Shown here: positions 4,826 to 25,331 of the stretch, piece by piece
Numbering within the stretch: position 1 is the stretch's first letter
Layout of the letters: each line of letters opens with the position of its first letter
Sequence record: PQ657772.1
Origin: Escherichia phage EC.P1
Strand: one strand, 5' to 3'
DNA length: 64,000 nucleotides
Position numbers and translations under genes: made by a program
The notes under the pieces: generated by a model
What the model was told of the DNA's origin: nothing
What the model saw: the letters and a program-made list of their open reading frames with translations, nothing else
Database searches by the model: none

Positions 4826-4868
4826 TGAAATAATTATAGCAAAAAGGGCTGACCGAAGTCAACCCTTT
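4826..4868 (-). promoter_or_regulatory. PeSL-like cassette: terminator hairpin GGGTTGAC-UUCG-GUCAGCCC fused to sigma-70-like promoter
   Basis: On - strand: hairpin (4846..4865) + T-run; -35 TTGACT lies in the stem, 18-bp spacer, -10 TATAAT (4833..4838); between denV stop and ATPase start. Confidence 0.6.
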
Positions 4869-4871
4869 CCT

Positions 4872-5387
4872 TTAATAATTATTCATTTCATCTTTGATTT
4901 GTTCTTCAATTTCGTCGAACATATCATTACTAGATTCGTCCTTACTACTTACGTTCTGCATATCTTTAACGTACTGTGGACATTCAACATCAGTAAACTT
5001 ATACCACGTAGGTTTCATCTGGAGCTTCTCAATCAAACGGTCACGAGACATTTTAATCTCTGACTCCGATGGTACGTAGTCATTACAAAACTCAGCCGGG
5101 AAGCCGCTAATGTCGTTTACTTCAGTGTTTTGAATCTTCATACCACGACGCAAACATTCGTTAACAATATCAATATGACGCTTCTGTAAGTACAATAACT
5201 TGTTGTAGAAGAATGTTACATGACCTGAACCTAACAGGTAAGTACTGTTAATTTTGAAATCACGGACTCGCTTACGTGCGTGAACATGTTTTTGTACAGC
5301 ACCAAACACACGTGGGAGTTCACGATATTCAGCCATCAGATGTTGGTCAGCAAGTTCTTTAACGTGTACTAAGTTAATGCGTGTCAT
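4872..5387 (-). CDS. denV: pyrimidine-dimer DNA glycosylase / endonuclease V
   Basis: N-terminal ~130 aa nearly colinear with phage T4 endonuclease V as I recall it ([48 protein letters not shown]); extra acidic C-terminal tail. Confidence 0.9.
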
Positions 5388-5409
5388 GTATTCATCCTCT
5401 CGTTTCGAT

Positions 5410-5450
5410 GAAATGATTATAGCAAAAAGGGCTGACCGAAGTCAACCCTT
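5410..5450 (-). promoter_or_regulatory. PeSL-like cassette (terminator hairpin + TTGACT/TATAAT promoter)
   Basis: Same 20-nt hairpin (5429..5448) as at 4846; -10 TATAAT 5416..5421; hairpin overlaps last codons of 5442..5855. Confidence 0.55.
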
Positions 5451-5855
5451 TTTTCTTTCAATCAAACATAGTCTACCAGAATGTACCATGCGATGGTGAT
5501 TAGAACAAAGAATCATACACTTTCGAATTTCATCTTTGATAGATTCTCGACTTTTACTGAACATAGAACTTGGTGTATGTTCTTTGGTATTAGGGTCAAG
5601 ATGGTGAAAGTCTAAACATTCTGGATACTTCATCATACAAACACTACAACCATAAAATGATTTAACTCTGGTCATGAAATCTTTATTTTTTCTTTTGATT
5701 TCTTCAAGTGTTTTTACATCAGTTTTTTTATTTCTGGTTCTCTTACTGGTAATATTACTACAACCTTTGCATGTATTTCTATGTTTCCCAGTATCACTTC
5801 TTATACCAAATTCACTAATGTCTTTTTCAATATTACACGTGATACACTTCTTCAT
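5442..5855 (-). CDS. HNH-domain endonuclease with N-terminal zinc ribbon
   Basis: 137 aa; CxxC...CxxC then CSVC..FHHLDPNTKEH..LCSNHHRMVH HNH signature. Confidence 0.6.
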   Translation of the reverse strand: MKKCITCNIEKDISEFGIRSDTGKHRNTCKGCSNITSKRTRNKKTDVKTLEEIKRKNKDFMTRVKSFYGCSVCMMKYPECLDFHHLDPNTKEHTPSSMFSKSRESIKDEIRKCMILCSNHHRMVHSGRLCLIERKKG

Positions 5856-6157
5856 TGTTTAATCCATTTATTCAACAATGCACCCAACTTCACAATCTCA
5901 TACCCATCCAGATAGCCATAGGAACACTCAGGTGTTTCATAAGTTGAACCATCATGGATACCTTGGCATTGGCTTTTGGAACGTTCAAGCAATCGTTGCA
6001 GTACTGATACGTCATCAAGAACGTAATACAAGTTAGCATATGGGTCCGTCACAATACAGTACTTAAACATGCCAAATGTATCAATCGATTTTTCAACCTT
6101 AGCAAATTGTTTCTTTTCTTTATTATACAGTGCGTACATATTAATCTCCATAATCAA
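5852..6157 (-). CDS. hypothetical protein
   Basis: 101 aa ORF, ATGA overlap with downstream gene. Confidence 0.55.
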   Translation of the reverse strand: MIMEINMYALYNKEKKQFAKVEKSIDTFGMFKYCIVTDPYANLYYVLDDVSVLQRLLERSKSQCQGIHDGSTYETPECSYGYLDGYEIVKLGALLNKWIKQ

Positions 6158-6512
6158 GTTTAACTAACTTACCACCCAGATACCCAAAGTTTTCTGGCTT
6201 CGCATCTGAATAGAAGAAGTCAGTACTCAACTCTGAATCCAATGCTAAAGCACACAACTCCACCCAAAATAAACCCCTATGTTGTACTGGCTTACAACGT
6301 TTCTGTACAGTTACTAGTCCAGTACATGATGACCACAACGTAGGGCAGATACCACTATTACTACGCTTGGAGTACTGCATCCACGAACGTTCATTGAGGT
6401 TAGCTATCATCCCTGTTAAGAATAGCTTCCAACTTTTAAAGGTTGGAATCTTGATAGCATATTCCCCAATGAGTATGACAGTTCGTGTTGCACCTTTCAA
6501 ATCTATATTCAT
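6141..6512 (-). CDS. hypothetical protein
   Basis: 123 aa ORF in operon. Confidence 0.55.
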   Translation of the reverse strand: MNIDLKGATRTVILIGEYAIKIPTFKSWKLFLTGMIANLNERSWMQYSKRSNSGICPTLWSSCTGLVTVQKRCKPVQHRGLFWVELCALALDSELSTDFFYSDAKPENFGYLGGKLVKLDYGD

Positions 6513-6521
6513 ATTTTTTAA

Positions 6522-6773
6522 TTAGAAGAACACAAACCAAGTCCAGAATAAATTCCACACTACAAATAAAAACATAGTGGTTTTATGTAAAATATCAGCA
6601 GTACTGGTCCATCCTCCACCGTGTCCTATTCCATTTATGAATAGAACTAAGAACAAGATACCATTTACTACAATAGTACATAGTAAGTACACAAACACAT
6701 TCCATGCAAGTTCAGGGGATACTAACGTAAATGGTAAAACAATTAGTAGTATTAGAACTAATAAAATTTTCAT
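6522..6773 (-). CDS. small membrane protein
   Basis: 83 aa; N-terminal signal/TM segment, Trp-rich hydrophobic C-terminus. Confidence 0.55.
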   Translation of the reverse strand: MKILLVLILLIVLPFTLVSPELAWNVFVYLLCTIVVNGILFLVLFINGIGHGGGWTSTADILHKTTMFLFVVWNLFWTWFVFF

Positions 6774-23434: not shown

Positions 23435-23448
23435 GATATATCCTCTAA

Positions 23449-24243
23449 TTAAATTACATATGGTTTATAGTAATGAATCTCGTTTGCGATTGCAGTGAAA
23501 ACTTTATTATTAAATCTTTCACCATAATCACGAAGTGATTCACCTTCTTCGCTTTCAATAAAGTAATTATATACTGGTAGACGTGCGGTGTCAACACCTA
23601 TAAATGATTTCATGTAAATTTGTACTAAACGATTCATTCCTTCATTTAAGCATTGCACCTCAAAGTGCTTGATACCTTTGTCTAAATGTTTGAATGCATT
23701 AATGATACCACGTTTAAAATCACTCTGCATAGTACTGAATAGATTCTCAGGGAACACTGTAATAGGTGACATTGATTTAAGAATGTATGTATCTTTAGCA
23801 TTCTTAATATACTCAATGAAGCAGTAGTTAACGTCAGGCTCGATAGAACGATCAGCGTTATGATACCAGTGCTTAAACTCACTGTACTCAGCAAACTTAT
23901 GCTGGCGTAATGCGTTACAATCCTCACACAATGCAGTCATGTTCTCTTTATCATTACCGCCCTGAAGACAGTCCAGTACATTATGGTCTAACGTCATGCG
24001 TACAAGGCGTTTCCCTTTAAGTACATAAGGTCTGAATTTATAACGGTCTTTAGTACTGTGCTTATGTAAAGTGAATACCACATTGGATTCACCACAACAA
24101 TCACATTTAAAGCCATCACGTGACATTACATGAATGAGTTTTCGAGTATTTGGTCCGAACTCAGATTTAGTAATGTTGCCGACAATTTCTGATGGGTCGT
24201 AGTATTTTGAATTCCGGCGAATCAATTCATCTATAGTGCTCAT
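23449..24243 (-). CDS. HNH-domain endonuclease
   Basis: Start set to ATG 24243 (GGAGAA RBS); CDCCGE...MTLDHNVLDCLQGGNDKENMTALCEDCN HNH/zinc signature. Confidence 0.65.
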   Translation of the reverse strand: MSTIDELIRRNSKYYDPSEIVGNITKSEFGPNTRKLIHVMSRDGFKCDCCGESNVVFTLHKHSTKDRYKFRPYVLKGKRLVRMTLDHNVLDCLQGGNDKENMTALCEDCNALRQHKFAEYSEFKHWYHNADRSIEPDVNYCFIEYIKNAKDTYILKSMSPITVFPENLFSTMQSDFKRGIINAFKHLDKGIKHFEVQCLNEGMNRLVQIYMKSFIGVDTARLPVYNYFIESEEGESLRDYGERFNNKVFTAIANEIHYYKPYVI

Positions 24244-24244
24244 T

Positions 24245-24472
24245 TTATATTTCTCCAGCAAGACACTCAAAAGTGACTTTTTTAACTTCGATAACTCGTA
24301 CCAAATAGTATCCATGAAAGAAATTAAAACCAATCATTTGTGATAATGCATCTGCTTCAGATTTTGCACGGATACATGATAGATATAGTTCTCGTATATC
24401 GCCATCCAACGATGCTTGTTTCTCGTCATTGATAACAATAGAACGAATCTCAAAACGAACACCATAACTCAT
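24245..24472 (-). CDS. hypothetical small protein
   Basis: 75 aa ORF ending 1 nt before HNH start. Confidence 0.5.
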   Translation of the reverse strand: MSYGVRFEIRSIVINDEKQASLDGDIRELYLSCIRAKSEADALSQMIGFNFFHGYYLVRVIEVKKVTFECLAGEI

Positions 24473-24678
24473 TCTGTTTGTCCAACAATTAGTTTTTCTT
24501 TAGTATTACTATTGTAACACCACATTAATTCTTCACCAACTGTTCTAAGTGAAACGCTGTTTACTTGTTCATACGTACTGTCACGTACTGCAATGCATTG
24601 ATTCATTGAATTCATTGGGGTGATTTGTACACCAGATTGTGGTGAAAGAGCAATAATTAAAAAGATTACTGAATTCAT
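24469..24678 (-). CDS. small secreted protein
   Basis: 69 aa; signal-like N-terminus. Confidence 0.5.
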   Translation of the reverse strand: MNSVIFLIIALSPQSGVQITPMNSMNQCIAVRDSTYEQVNSVSLRTVGEELMWCYNSNTKEKLIVGQTE

Positions 24679-24742
24679 TAGATATTCCTCAATGGTTAAT
24701 CATCCATCTCTTCGAGATGTCTGTTCGCTTCTAATACTACGT

Positions 24743-24771
24743 ATTCTACGCGAATGAATCATAACTGTCAA
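24743..24771 (-). promoter_or_regulatory. sigma-70-like promoter TTGACA-17-TAGAAT
   Basis: -35 24766..24771, -10 24743..24748, upstream of 24469..24678. Confidence 0.45.
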
Positions 24772-25302
24772 GGACTTTTAATATTGACGGGATTTGAGGA
24801 AGGGATTTTTCTTCCCCCCGCACGGAGGGAAATTTGACGCTGATGGTATCAGAGCTATTGCATTGAAGATTACTCATAACGAGTGCGAAAGCGGGTCATC
24901 CTGTTTCTCTCTACTTCAGTTTCATATGACGGTCTACACTTTTAAACATAGTGTATCTTCATTAAGTATCTATGCAATCAAATACTTAATGTGAGTACTC
25001 AAATTTTGGACGCAACTTTCCTGTACAAAATTCGATAACTCTCCCTTAGATAATTCGTAAGGTGTTATCCTTATATGTCTATCGAGGAACCACCAGCTAT
25101 CCTAACGTGGTTCTTTATACAGCCGCATTGCCGTGAGGGGTTCAAACTATGCCCACATCTAACGGGTTTCTTTTGCTGTTCGCTACAATGAAAAGCTCAT
25201 CTATCCTTTACATTTTCAAGTGAAGTAGGGGAAGATTGTCAGTACCAGTACTGTCATTGTGATTGTACATAGATCATTGTATCACCATTAATAAATTTGT
25301 CC
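24772..25302 (-). other. ORF-free, relatively GC-rich structured region (candidate non-coding RNA)
   Basis: About 530 bp with no credible ORF on either strand, locally GC-richer than flanks, several GNRA-type hairpins (e.g. GCGAAAGC). Confidence 0.3.
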
Positions 25303-25331
25303 CATAAAAAAAGGCTGACCGAAGTCAACCC
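25303..25331 (-). terminator. intrinsic terminator (GGGTTGAC-UUCG-GUCAGCC hairpin + U-run)
   Basis: PeSL-type hairpin 25313..25331 followed on - strand by T8; directly after sigma-factor stop; no TATAAT at promoter spacing. Confidence 0.6.

Follow-up and report, generated by a model that had tools for sequence, protein, structure and literature searches.

A repeated hairpin cassette in an Asteriusvirus-like jumbo phage: a probable terminator-promoter unit of the PeSL type at sites of gene exchange

Introduction

Promoter early stem-loops (PeSLs) are composite elements, present in repeated copies, in which a sigma-70 early promoter is combined with an AT-rich upstream tract, a terminator stem-loop and a Shine-Dalgarno (SD) sequence with ATG. 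They are concentrated in hyperplastic regions, lie at the borders of insertions and deletions (indels), sometimes as half copies, and form mini-circles (PMC2839356, PMC4122927). In lacZ fusions from RB49 and phi1, PeSL stem-loops terminated transcription and PeSL promoters fired (PMC2839356). Here we describe a hairpin cassette repeated in a stretch of 64,000 nucleotides of Escherichia phage EC.P1 (PQ657772.1; the whole stretch is called the window), which an earlier note, made from the sequence alone, had likened to PeSLs. The cassette is probably a dual terminator-promoter unit that also serves as recombination homology, i.e. a PeSL-type cassette. It is a new example of these known cassettes and not a new kind of element.

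In a megablast search with positions 4000-18000 of the window, the best GenBank phage match was fEgEco12 (375 kb, 98.9% identity), followed by WPEC3, vB_Ec-M-J and BF17 and then by 121Q, PBECO4 and G17 at 85-88%. The records assign these relatives to Asteriusvirus, the 121Q/RaK2-like jumbo myoviruses. The phage is an Asteriusvirus-like jumbo myovirus and, strictly speaking, no T4-type phage. The CBB paper was the only promoter or terminator analysis of RaK2/121Q-type phages that we found, and it lists RpoD-like promoters and, separately among the terminators of its supplement, the hairpin. A full-text search for the hairpin sequence returned no phage paper, and no paper describing such units as PeSLs in RaK2-like phages was found.

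Results

Copies and anatomy of the cassette

The hairpin GGGTTGAC-TTCG-GTCAGCCC occurs at exactly eight sites between 4846 and 25331, all on the minus strand, which is the coding strand here. All copies lie within 4.8-25.3 kb, and the other 39 kb of the window contain none. A search with the plus-strand 20-mer GGGCTGACCGAAGTCAACCC allowing up to three mismatches gave eight matches (at 4846, 5429, 10052, 10734, 12813, 13594, 17188 and 25312) and none in 100 shuffles, which confirms the repeated UUCG-type hairpin reported in the earlier note. The free-loop pattern GGTTGACNNNNGTCRRCC with up to two mismatches found the identical eight loci and no further ones in the 64 kb. By a repeat search the eight copies, units of approximately 45-70 bases, form one family, and a 69-nt sub-family of five copies spans the leader up to the ATG.

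The minus-strand consensus reads (A-tract)GGGTTGAC-TTCG-GTCAGCCC-TTTTTGC-TATAAT-nATTTCATCAAC...GAGG...ATG. An A-rich tract of approximately 3-6 A stands immediately 5' of the GG(G) clamp, and the loop is TTCG in seven copies and TTCA in one (13594). TTGACT in the 5' arm is followed after a 16- or 18-bp spacer by TATAAT in six of the eight copies (minus-strand spans 4833-4862, 5416-5445, 10039-10068, 12802-12829, 13581-13610 and 17175-17204), and TGn precedes the -10 box in four of these six. The earlier description of a U-run, a -35 box within the stem and TATAAT 16-18 bp downstream therefore fits these six copies, and the two copies it had called hairpin-only (10734 and 25312, there numbered 10735 and 25313) indeed have no acceptable -10 box. 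The distance between the upstream stop codon and the start of the hairpin is 6-21 nt in six copies. In two copies the TGA of TTGAC is itself the stop codon of the upstream gene (genes 5442..5855 and 17201..17422); the statement that several hairpins overlap the last codons of the upstream gene is true for two copies and not for the other six. An ATG, preceded by a GAGG/GGAG-type SD, lies 39-42 nt past the hairpin in five promoter-bearing copies and in the hairpin-only copy at 10734.

Cassette 1 (4805..4875; this and all following copies on the minus strand) contains the hairpin at 4846-4865 with the -35 box TTGACT at 4857-4862, a T-run with TGn and the -10 box TATAAT at 4833-4838. An A-tract precedes it on the 5' side, a conserved leader with SD connects it to the ATG of gene 4034..4804, and it is a recombinant junction (see below). 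Cassette 2 (5388..5458; hairpin 5429-5448, promoter 5416-5445) has its leader to the ATG (5387) of denV, the pyrimidine-dimer glycosylase gene (4872..5387, minus). The denV gene is a one-gene unit with cassettes 2 and 1 at either side, and an HNH endonuclease gene of variable presence (5442..5855, minus; record annotation) lies directly 5' of cassette 2, so that the bracketing of denV and the adjoining HNH gene given in the earlier note agree with the coordinates. Cassette 3 (10013..10081) has a hairpin with two G.U pairs at 10052-10071, a promoter at 10039-10068 and a leader to the ATG of 9599..10012. Copy 4 (10729..10762), located after the virion structural gene 10763..12256, has a fully paired hairpin at 10734-10753 and a T7 run, and TAAATA stands at 18 bp instead of a consensus -10 box, which makes it a terminator only. 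The hairpin of cassette 5 (12802..12842) is at 12813-12832, and its -10 box TATAAT (12802-12807) follows a 16-bp spacer. Directly 3' of this hairpin is a homing endonuclease gene (12261..12803, minus) with HNH_3 and NUMOD4 matches at 12264-12803 in a Pfam scan, present in the window only among the phages compared. Cassette 6 (13534..13623), the copy with the TTCA loop (hairpin 13594-13613, promoter 13581-13610), has a 47-nt leader and then a 37-aa open reading frame (ORF) from 13533. Cassette 7 (17146..17217; hairpin 17188-17207 with an A-U outer pair, promoter 17175-17204) overlaps the stop codon of gene 17201..17422 and has a leader to the ATG of 16705..17145. Copy 8 (25307..25338) is a terminator-only hairpin at 25312-25331 with a T7 run, 7 nt past the stop codon of the sigma-factor gene 25339..26307.

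Conservation of the hairpin on the transcribed strand

The minus-strand RNA of the copies folds with energies of -12.1 to -19.8 kcal/mol (z -2.8 to -5.5), the A-tract and U-run lengthening the stem. The plus-strand RNA of two copies tested gave -10.1 and -11.6 kcal/mol, and this weaker folding arises because U.G pairs turn into C-A mismatches. The copies show a GC-rich stem, a short loop, a 3' U-tract on the transcribed strand and a position after a stop codon, as intrinsic terminators do. ARNold terminator annotations stand on the same sequence in the G17 record, in the CBB supplement and in the matches from GAP32, Munch and Muenster. A simple terminator scan listed three of the eight copies, probably since the A:U stem extension consumes the T-run, and was not used as evidence.

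The 107 distinct units in which pairing was examined came from related and unrelated phages (888 kb of DNA) and were picked by the 10-mer GTTGACTTCG only (5' arm and loop), so that pairing was not selected for. All eight stem pairs were present in 96 units and seven of eight in 7 units, and the four units that failed were half cassettes and one chance match. The non-Watson-Crick positions of the 107 units were G.U in 114 and A.C in 3 cases on the transcribed strand. The corresponding numbers in the 20 distinct hairpin 20-mers were 27 and 2, and 12 and 2 when the nearly fixed pair 4/17 was left aside (binomial p = 0.013). The outer pair of these 20 hairpins varies among G-C, A-T, T-A and C-G. 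Nine cassettes are present in a homologous 20.7-kb region of Klebsiella phage RaK2, including those before the orthologues of denV and of a 256-aa AAA-ATPase-like gene (family fam2), and they retain the stem with the loops TTCG, GAAA, TTAG, ATAA, TTAT and TTTG. The strand-specific wobbles, compensatory changes and UUCG/GNRA tetraloops point to selection on the sense RNA hairpin, i.e. on an intrinsic terminator. Pair 4/17 is T/G on the DNA in 88 of the 107 units. We infer that this nearly fixed U.G (GTCAG for GTCAA) spares the RNA stem and removes the opposite-strand mirror TTGAC, and the conserved pair suggests a testable design rule for one-directional terminator-promoters.

Promoter signals

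The coding strand of the window contains 32 near-consensus sigma-70 promoters (TTGACA-N16-18-TATAAT with up to one mismatch) and the opposite strand none, and they are therefore real signals rather than AT-rich noise. Among them, only the cassette family has its -35 box embedded in a strong hairpin. The proximal subsite of the UP element reportedly has the consensus AAAAAARNR, attributed to Estrem et al., and AAAAAAGGG immediately upstream of the -35 box presumably matches it. Across phages, a hexamer with up to one mismatch to TATAAT is located 16-19 bp past TTGACT in 76 of 103 hairpin units, where our own rough estimate of the chance rate is approximately 6%, and TGn is likewise found in 76 of 103. 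In the record of Yersinia phage fHe-Yen9-03, this sequence carries an annotation as -35/-10 signals.

Two other promoters of the window are combined with hairpins in a different manner. At 63160-63219 (minus), a hairpin AAGAGTGCGTTTTCAA / TTGAAACGCACTCTT with a T-run (-23.6 kcal/mol) encloses the -10 box of a consensus promoter (63191-63219), a composite geometry that resembles the RB49-type PeSLs. At 35755-35812 (minus), a strong terminator hairpin, AAGGCTGATTCATTATGAATCGGCCTTTTTT, comes immediately after the promoter TTGACA-N18-TATACT, and the transcript would be only approximately 40 nt long.

Gene exchange at cassettes in related phages

The blastn alignments of ten relatives (fEgEco12, WPEC3, vB_Ec-M-J, TH47, EC22.5-2, G17, 121Q, JP4, UB and SHEFM2K) were chained against the window. 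CMSTMSU, which looked riddled with frameshifts, was left out of the breakpoint statistics, and the IMG/VR relatives of the neighbouring 256-aa gene were only 121Q and RaK2 and of little use for indel mapping. Structural differences among the relatives are found mostly at 3.9-13.6 kb. Breakpoints of insertions, deletions or replacements lie inside four cassettes, so that cassettes coincide with module boundaries as the earlier note had supposed.

The clearest case is cassette 1. In G17, 121Q, vB_Ec-M-J, JP4 and UB, denV is followed by a half cassette, AAAGGAAAGGGTTGACTTCGGT|TACACAAAGGAACATAACATG (also written GGGTTGACTTCGGT|TACACAAAGG for G17, 121Q, JP4 and UB), and the next gene follows directly. 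Past the half cassette there are two to six additional genes and one or two full cassettes, and then fam2. This stretch (2288 bp in comparison with vB_Ec-M-J) is absent from the window and fEgEco12, in which cassette 1 has its denV-side flank from the half copy and its fam2-side leader from the full copy, the two overlapping by 19 bp at 4850-4868. The difference is a deletion, or an insertion the other way round, joined within the hairpin.

With C for a cassette and numbered gene families, the gene order of this hot spot is fam0-HNH-C-denV-C-fam2 in the window and fEgEco12, fam0-C-denV-half-fam6-fam5-C-fam4-fam7-C-fam2 in G17 and fam0-HNH-C-fam9-C-denV-C*-fam10-fam8-fam14-C-fam4-fam7-C-fam2 in TH47. 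The slot of the G17 fam7 gene is occupied by fam11-fam12 in 121Q and UB and by fam16 in SHEFM2K, and just before a cassette are fam13 in vB_Ec-M-J and fam15 in JP4. The fam9 gene is in different cassette slots in TH47 and WPEC3, the WPEC3 copy lying beyond denV, at its opposite side. The variable genes of the hot spot are always immediately 5' or 3' of a cassette in this gene-family map.

At cassette 2, the HNH gene 5442..5855 is missing in G17 and 121Q with a breakpoint at 5462, the upstream edge of the cassette, and TH47 has a 1516-bp insertion between 71-bp cassette duplicates. At cassette 5, fEgEco12, WPEC3 and vB_Ec-M-J have 107 bp in place of the segment 12206-12810, and the breakpoint is the 3' edge of the hairpin. 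The module between the cassettes at 13594 and 12813 is swapped in six relatives (G17, JP4, EC22.5-2, SHEFM2K, UB and TH47) with breakpoints at 13570-13591. Both genes flanking cassette 3 are replaced in the sampled 121Q-clade relatives while a cassette is retained, and no breakpoint lies within it. A clean cassette-to-cassette exchange of a kinase around 10052 was considered and rejected, the second junction in SHEFM2K being a different, hairpin-less promoter. In TH47, 708 bp are inserted at a distance of 17 nt from the footprint of copy 8 and approximately 37 nt from its hairpin. No breakpoint was found at cassette 7 (17188) in the ten relatives.

Similar behaviour was observed at a promoter of a second family, which has no hairpin (22897..22945, minus; TTGACA-N8-CAGTACTG-TATAAT-GTTTATATCAA). 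Its -10/leader repeat stands on both sides of a one-gene insertion in vB_Ec-M-J, and five other relatives have an insertion there. Short repeated regulatory DNA in general appears to behave in this way here, with or without a hairpin.

A total of 35 breakpoint clusters were counted in 1.5-36 kb, and four of them fell in the cassette footprint, which makes up 1.4% of this DNA (binomial p = 0.0016). Of the eight gene junctions with a cassette, five were hit, and of the 75 others, 10 (odds ratio 10.8, Fisher p = 0.004). The breakpoints are scattered over the A-tract, the loop and 3' arm, the 3' edge and the -10/leader part, and do not mark one cut site.

Distribution among phages

The 61-nt cassette matched 537 places in 172 phage records in a blastn search. 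The matches include RaK2-like jumbo phages of Escherichia, Klebsiella, Salmonella, Cronobacter (GAP32), Erwinia, Serratia, Yersinia and Pectobacterium, 51 Vibrio phage records at 80-88% identity (among them the KVP40-like VH7D and phi-ST2), Aeromonas T4-like phages (65, AS-sw) and rV5-like phages (CR8, PBES 02, CB7). In 121Q, seven of eight exact copies are at 98.7-112.7 kb, within 14 kb of the 348.5 kb genome, and RaK2 has five exact copies at 202-223 kb. The exact 18-mer was present in 47 IMG/VR stretches, and in nearly all of them it is accompanied by the A-tract, the T-run, a -10 box and an SD-ATG.

Approximately 60-70 nt, from the A-tract to the CATCGAAAC-type leader, are common to RaK2-like jumbo, KVP40-like, Aeromonas T4-like and rV5-like phages. 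For the genes that flank the cassettes of phages outside the RaK2 group, the RaK2-like loci contain no homologues, i.e. the cassette is common and the cargo is not, and a transfer of whole modules across groups was rejected for this reason. Convergence is plausible for the hairpin core, where TTGAC in the 5' arm, the UUCG loop and the GGG/CCC clamp would largely fix the rest. That TTTTGCTAT and the CATCGAAAC-type leader are common to these phages speaks for a degree of horizontal spread. We consider it rather doubtful that the cassette is a portable cross-family module for regulation and recombination and not merely a lineage-specific signal. If horizontal spread did occur, unrelated co-infecting enterobacterial phages would gain a common docking sequence to capture expression-ready genes.

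Other features of the window

Every gene from approximately 1.5 to 41 kb is on the minus strand. These are mostly small genes of unknown function, together with denV, HNH endonucleases, the sigma factor (25339..26307) and two virion proteins. Three free-standing HNH-type genes occur in 20 kb (23449-24333, 5442-5855 and 12261-12803), each missing from at least one close relative, and turnover of endonuclease genes is high around 5442-24333. At 1527-3966 (minus) there are tandem small paralogous genes of approximately 110-125 aa whose copy number differs between clades, and G17, JP4 and SHEFM2K of the 121Q clade have an additional 342-bp paralogue near the equivalent of 3966. An apparent 834-bp gap at 3967-4800 in the 121Q clade proved to be false, resulting from paralogue overlap in the blastn chaining. 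Upstream of the window region, the relatives have a plus-strand array of RCC1-like 'DNA condensation' paralogues, several of which are followed by a -12 kcal terminator in G17.

The Rfam search of the whole window at the gathering score gave five tRNAs and no other family, and at E<=1 there was no match besides tRNAs in 22.7-25.4 kb. Downstream of copy 8, 434 nt (24878-25311) contain no ORF of at least 40 aa and no Rfam match at E<=1. The fEgEco12 record has no annotation in the matching gap, where TH47 has the 708-bp insertion.

The palindrome AGTACT occurs 169 times in the 64 kb (2.6/kb), while approximately 22 are expected by base composition and 37 by a second-order Markov model. The sites are in coding and intergenic DNA alike (e.g. 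1500, 7599, 18963, 22925, 39234, 40594 and 41015), and CAGTACTG occurs 42 times in the window. The density is 2.4-4.8/kb in other RaK2-like contigs and 0-0.2/kb in hairpin-sharing phages outside this group. AGTACT may be a lineage-specific target of a DNA-binding or DNA-modifying function. The motif is part of the second promoter family, TTGAC(A/T)-N8/9-(C/T)AGTACTG(A)-TATAAT, whose copies are at 7592-7619, 18956-18983, 22918-22945, 39226-39254, 40586-40614 and 41008-41035 (all minus). Three copies are in the tRNA cluster region, and that at 22918 is the joint of the one-gene insertion in six relatives. The leader after this promoter (22824-22918, minus) contains a 13-bp stem, GGGAATGCAGTGA...TCACTGCGTTCCC, and then GCCCTTTT just before the ATG at 22824, and the stem may be an attenuator or a structured untranslated region. 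Between the convergent ORFs 366..1490 (plus) and 1527..1898 (minus), a 12-bp perfect palindrome with T-runs on either side, AATCCAGTACTA-TTA-TAGTACTGGATT (1495-1521), resembles a bidirectional terminator formed from the AGTACT motif.

Beyond the window, at 143-153 kb of 121Q and in eight other RaK2-like loci, a conserved leader of approximately 45 nt, ...CATTGGCAGATAAGCC..CTAACCCAYAGGGTGCRGAG..., comes after strong promoters, hairpin cassettes among them, and precedes an AGTACT-rich spacer and another promoter. There are also convergent copies that are complementary to one another. The leader had no Rfam match, and these elements may be an undescribed family of phage small RNAs.

Discussion

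Proposed mechanism

RNA polymerase coming from the upstream gene would transcribe the A-tract, GGGUUGAC-UUCG-GUCAGCCC and then UUUUU. As this is a canonical intrinsic terminator, the upstream transcript would end there with a stable tetraloop hairpin as its cap. This DNA would also act as a near-consensus host sigma-70 promoter, in which the A-tract and GGG resemble the proximal UP-element subsite, TTGACT in the 5' arm would be the -35 box, the 3' arm and the T-run would form an 18-bp spacer ending in TGn (extended -10) with TATAAT next, and the conserved leader (ATTTCATCAAC...GAGG) would lead to the next ATG. Since a transcript from the cassette promoter would start downstream of the hairpin, it would not be terminated by that hairpin. 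The early region would be split into insulated units of one to a few genes, each with a strong early promoter. Recombination would delete, insert or exchange neighbouring genes at the cassettes because these are direct repeats of approximately 45-70 bp at many junctions, and this homology-joint behaviour is the same as that described for PeSLs.

Alternative explanations

Several points weigh against this mechanism as a whole. Both termination and initiation are read from the sequence, as is the attribution of the exchanges to cassette homology rather than to homing endonucleases. Three of the eight cassettes (10052, 10734 and 17188) have no breakpoint, and the replacement around the cassette at 10052 does not stop at the cassette. 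The sample is small (35 clusters from ten non-independent genomes), and the clusters were hand-curated from blastn chains with at least one artefact. Moreover, most of the variable genes beside cassettes are homing endonucleases by Pfam scan or record annotation, with fam3, fam7, fam9 and fam16 being HNH, homing or plain endonucleases in public records. Homing endonucleases make indels by their own mechanism and prefer intergenic sites, and the earlier note did not take this alternative driver of the indels into account. It is conceivable, though we judge it unlikely, that the cassette is a purely regulatory overlap of terminator and promoter kept by selection, and that its coincidence with indels is a by-product of viable indels having to end between genes and of free-standing homing endonuclease genes entering intergenic DNA beside expression signals and taking their flanks with them. 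The HNH_3 and NUMOD4 gene and the annotated HNH or homing endonucleases in vB_Ec-M-J, JP4, SHEFM2K and WPEC3 would agree with this explanation, as would the WPEC3 breakpoints at 4898 and 4971 within denV, which endonuclease-driven co-conversion would give, and the endonuclease-linked or cassette-free indels at 6383-6943, 15145-15619 and 23452-24471. However, the enrichment holds with the gene-junction null (five of eight against 10 of 75) and the junctions are chimeric within the hairpin itself. ORFans without an endonuclease label (fam12-15 and the 12854..13411 module) are also gained, lost and exchanged at cassette edges, and a promoter-flanked lone ORFan without endonuclease shows the same pattern at 22897-22945. 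Cassette homology and endonuclease-induced breaks probably work together and are not separable with these data; recombination driven by the cassettes is supported, not proven.

A DNA operator, bound by a dimeric phage or host protein on the -35 box to shut early promoters and with the RNA hairpin irrelevant, would have the typical geometry in the 8-4-8 palindrome over the -35 box and would suit copies limited to one early region. We regard it as very improbable, since the commonest palindrome is imperfect on the DNA (the T/G pair 4/17), DNA symmetry does not predict the excess of G.U over A.C, every copy is flanked by an A-tract and a U-run with loops alternating between UUCG-type and GNRA-type, and two terminator-only copies stand after long genes where there is no promoter to regulate. 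About equally remote is the idea that one or more of the neighbouring homing endonucleases recognise the cassette or land on it. The breakpoints across the whole cassette, the mutually unrelated adjacent endonucleases and the cassettes that persist uncut beside endonuclease genes speak against it, even though a sequence repeated in many phages would be an ideal homing target and endonuclease genes do abut the hairpin on one side or the other (5442..5855 and 12261..12803; EcMJ_562, M2K_0275 and JP4_CDS0203 in relatives). The many near-identical short copies, common to unrelated phage families unlike their flanking genes, might finally suggest a miniature self-copying mobile element similar to miniature inverted-repeat transposable elements or repetitive extragenic palindromes. 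This is hardly credible for a repeat that lacks terminal inverted repeats (the hairpin apart), target-site duplications and a transposase, stands in one orientation only and exactly between stop and start codons with the SD at a fixed distance, and keeps orthologous positions between Escherichia and Klebsiella phages.

Significance

As a terminator-promoter unit that probably also serves as recombination homology, the cassette would extend the PeSL idea, regulatory cassettes as recombination joints, from T4-like phages to RaK2/121Q jumbo phages. The junctions inside the hairpin are given at base resolution, and the overlap of signals is maximal, with a UP-like tract, -35 box, terminator stem, spacer and extended -10 box in approximately 45 nt. 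Public records annotate these sites inconsistently, as a terminator here and a promoter there, and both annotations should be given. The cassettes would mark likely borders of transcription units and the gene slots likeliest to differ between therapeutic phage isolates. The value lies mainly in annotation and in the understanding of gene turnover in jumbo phages, and cross-family conservation of the cassette could raise the interest.

Comparison with known systems

Ordinary intrinsic terminators share with the cassette a GC-clamped stem of 8-13 bp, a hyperstable C(UUCG)G/GNRA tetraloop, a 5' A-tract and a 3' U-run. However, they are without the conserved TTGAC in the 5' arm and the TGnTATAAT at a fixed 18 bp, and they are not repeated near-verbatim across a genome and across phage families. 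The free-standing homing endonucleases of T4-like phages (Seg/Mob/HNH) resemble several indels here in that variable genes are wedged between conserved ones, while their insertion model leaves the conserved cassette, the RNA-strand pairing and the turnover of non-endonuclease ORFans at cassette edges unexplained.

The closest known systems are the PeSLs of T4-like phages (RB49/phi1, T4/PST and KVP40/nt-1), which likewise combine a near-consensus sigma-70 promoter, an AT-rich tract, a stem-loop and a 3' SD/ATG. As with PeSLs, the copies are direct-orientation repeats between small ORFs of a plastic early region, lie where stretches inserted, deleted or replaced between close relatives begin or end, and include degraded half copies. 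Stem ends of the type A3-4G3...C3T3-4, as found here, are reported for the PeSLs of nt-1. The resemblance put forward in the earlier note therefore stands for each PeSL feature that could be tested on the sequence (promoter, stem-loop, AT-rich tract with SD/ATG, clustered direct copies and location at indel borders). It does not extend to the host, which is a RaK2/121Q-like jumbo myovirus of 350-385 kb and not a T4-like (Tevenvirinae-type) phage; the host lineage tells where PeSLs were first found, not how they work. The arrangement of the signals also differs. The stem-loop lies between the -35 and -10 boxes or across the -10 box in the RB49/phi1 PeSLs and just upstream of the promoter in those of PST and nt-1, whereas here the 5' arm has the -35 hexamer as its core, and terminator and promoter overlap at nearly every base.

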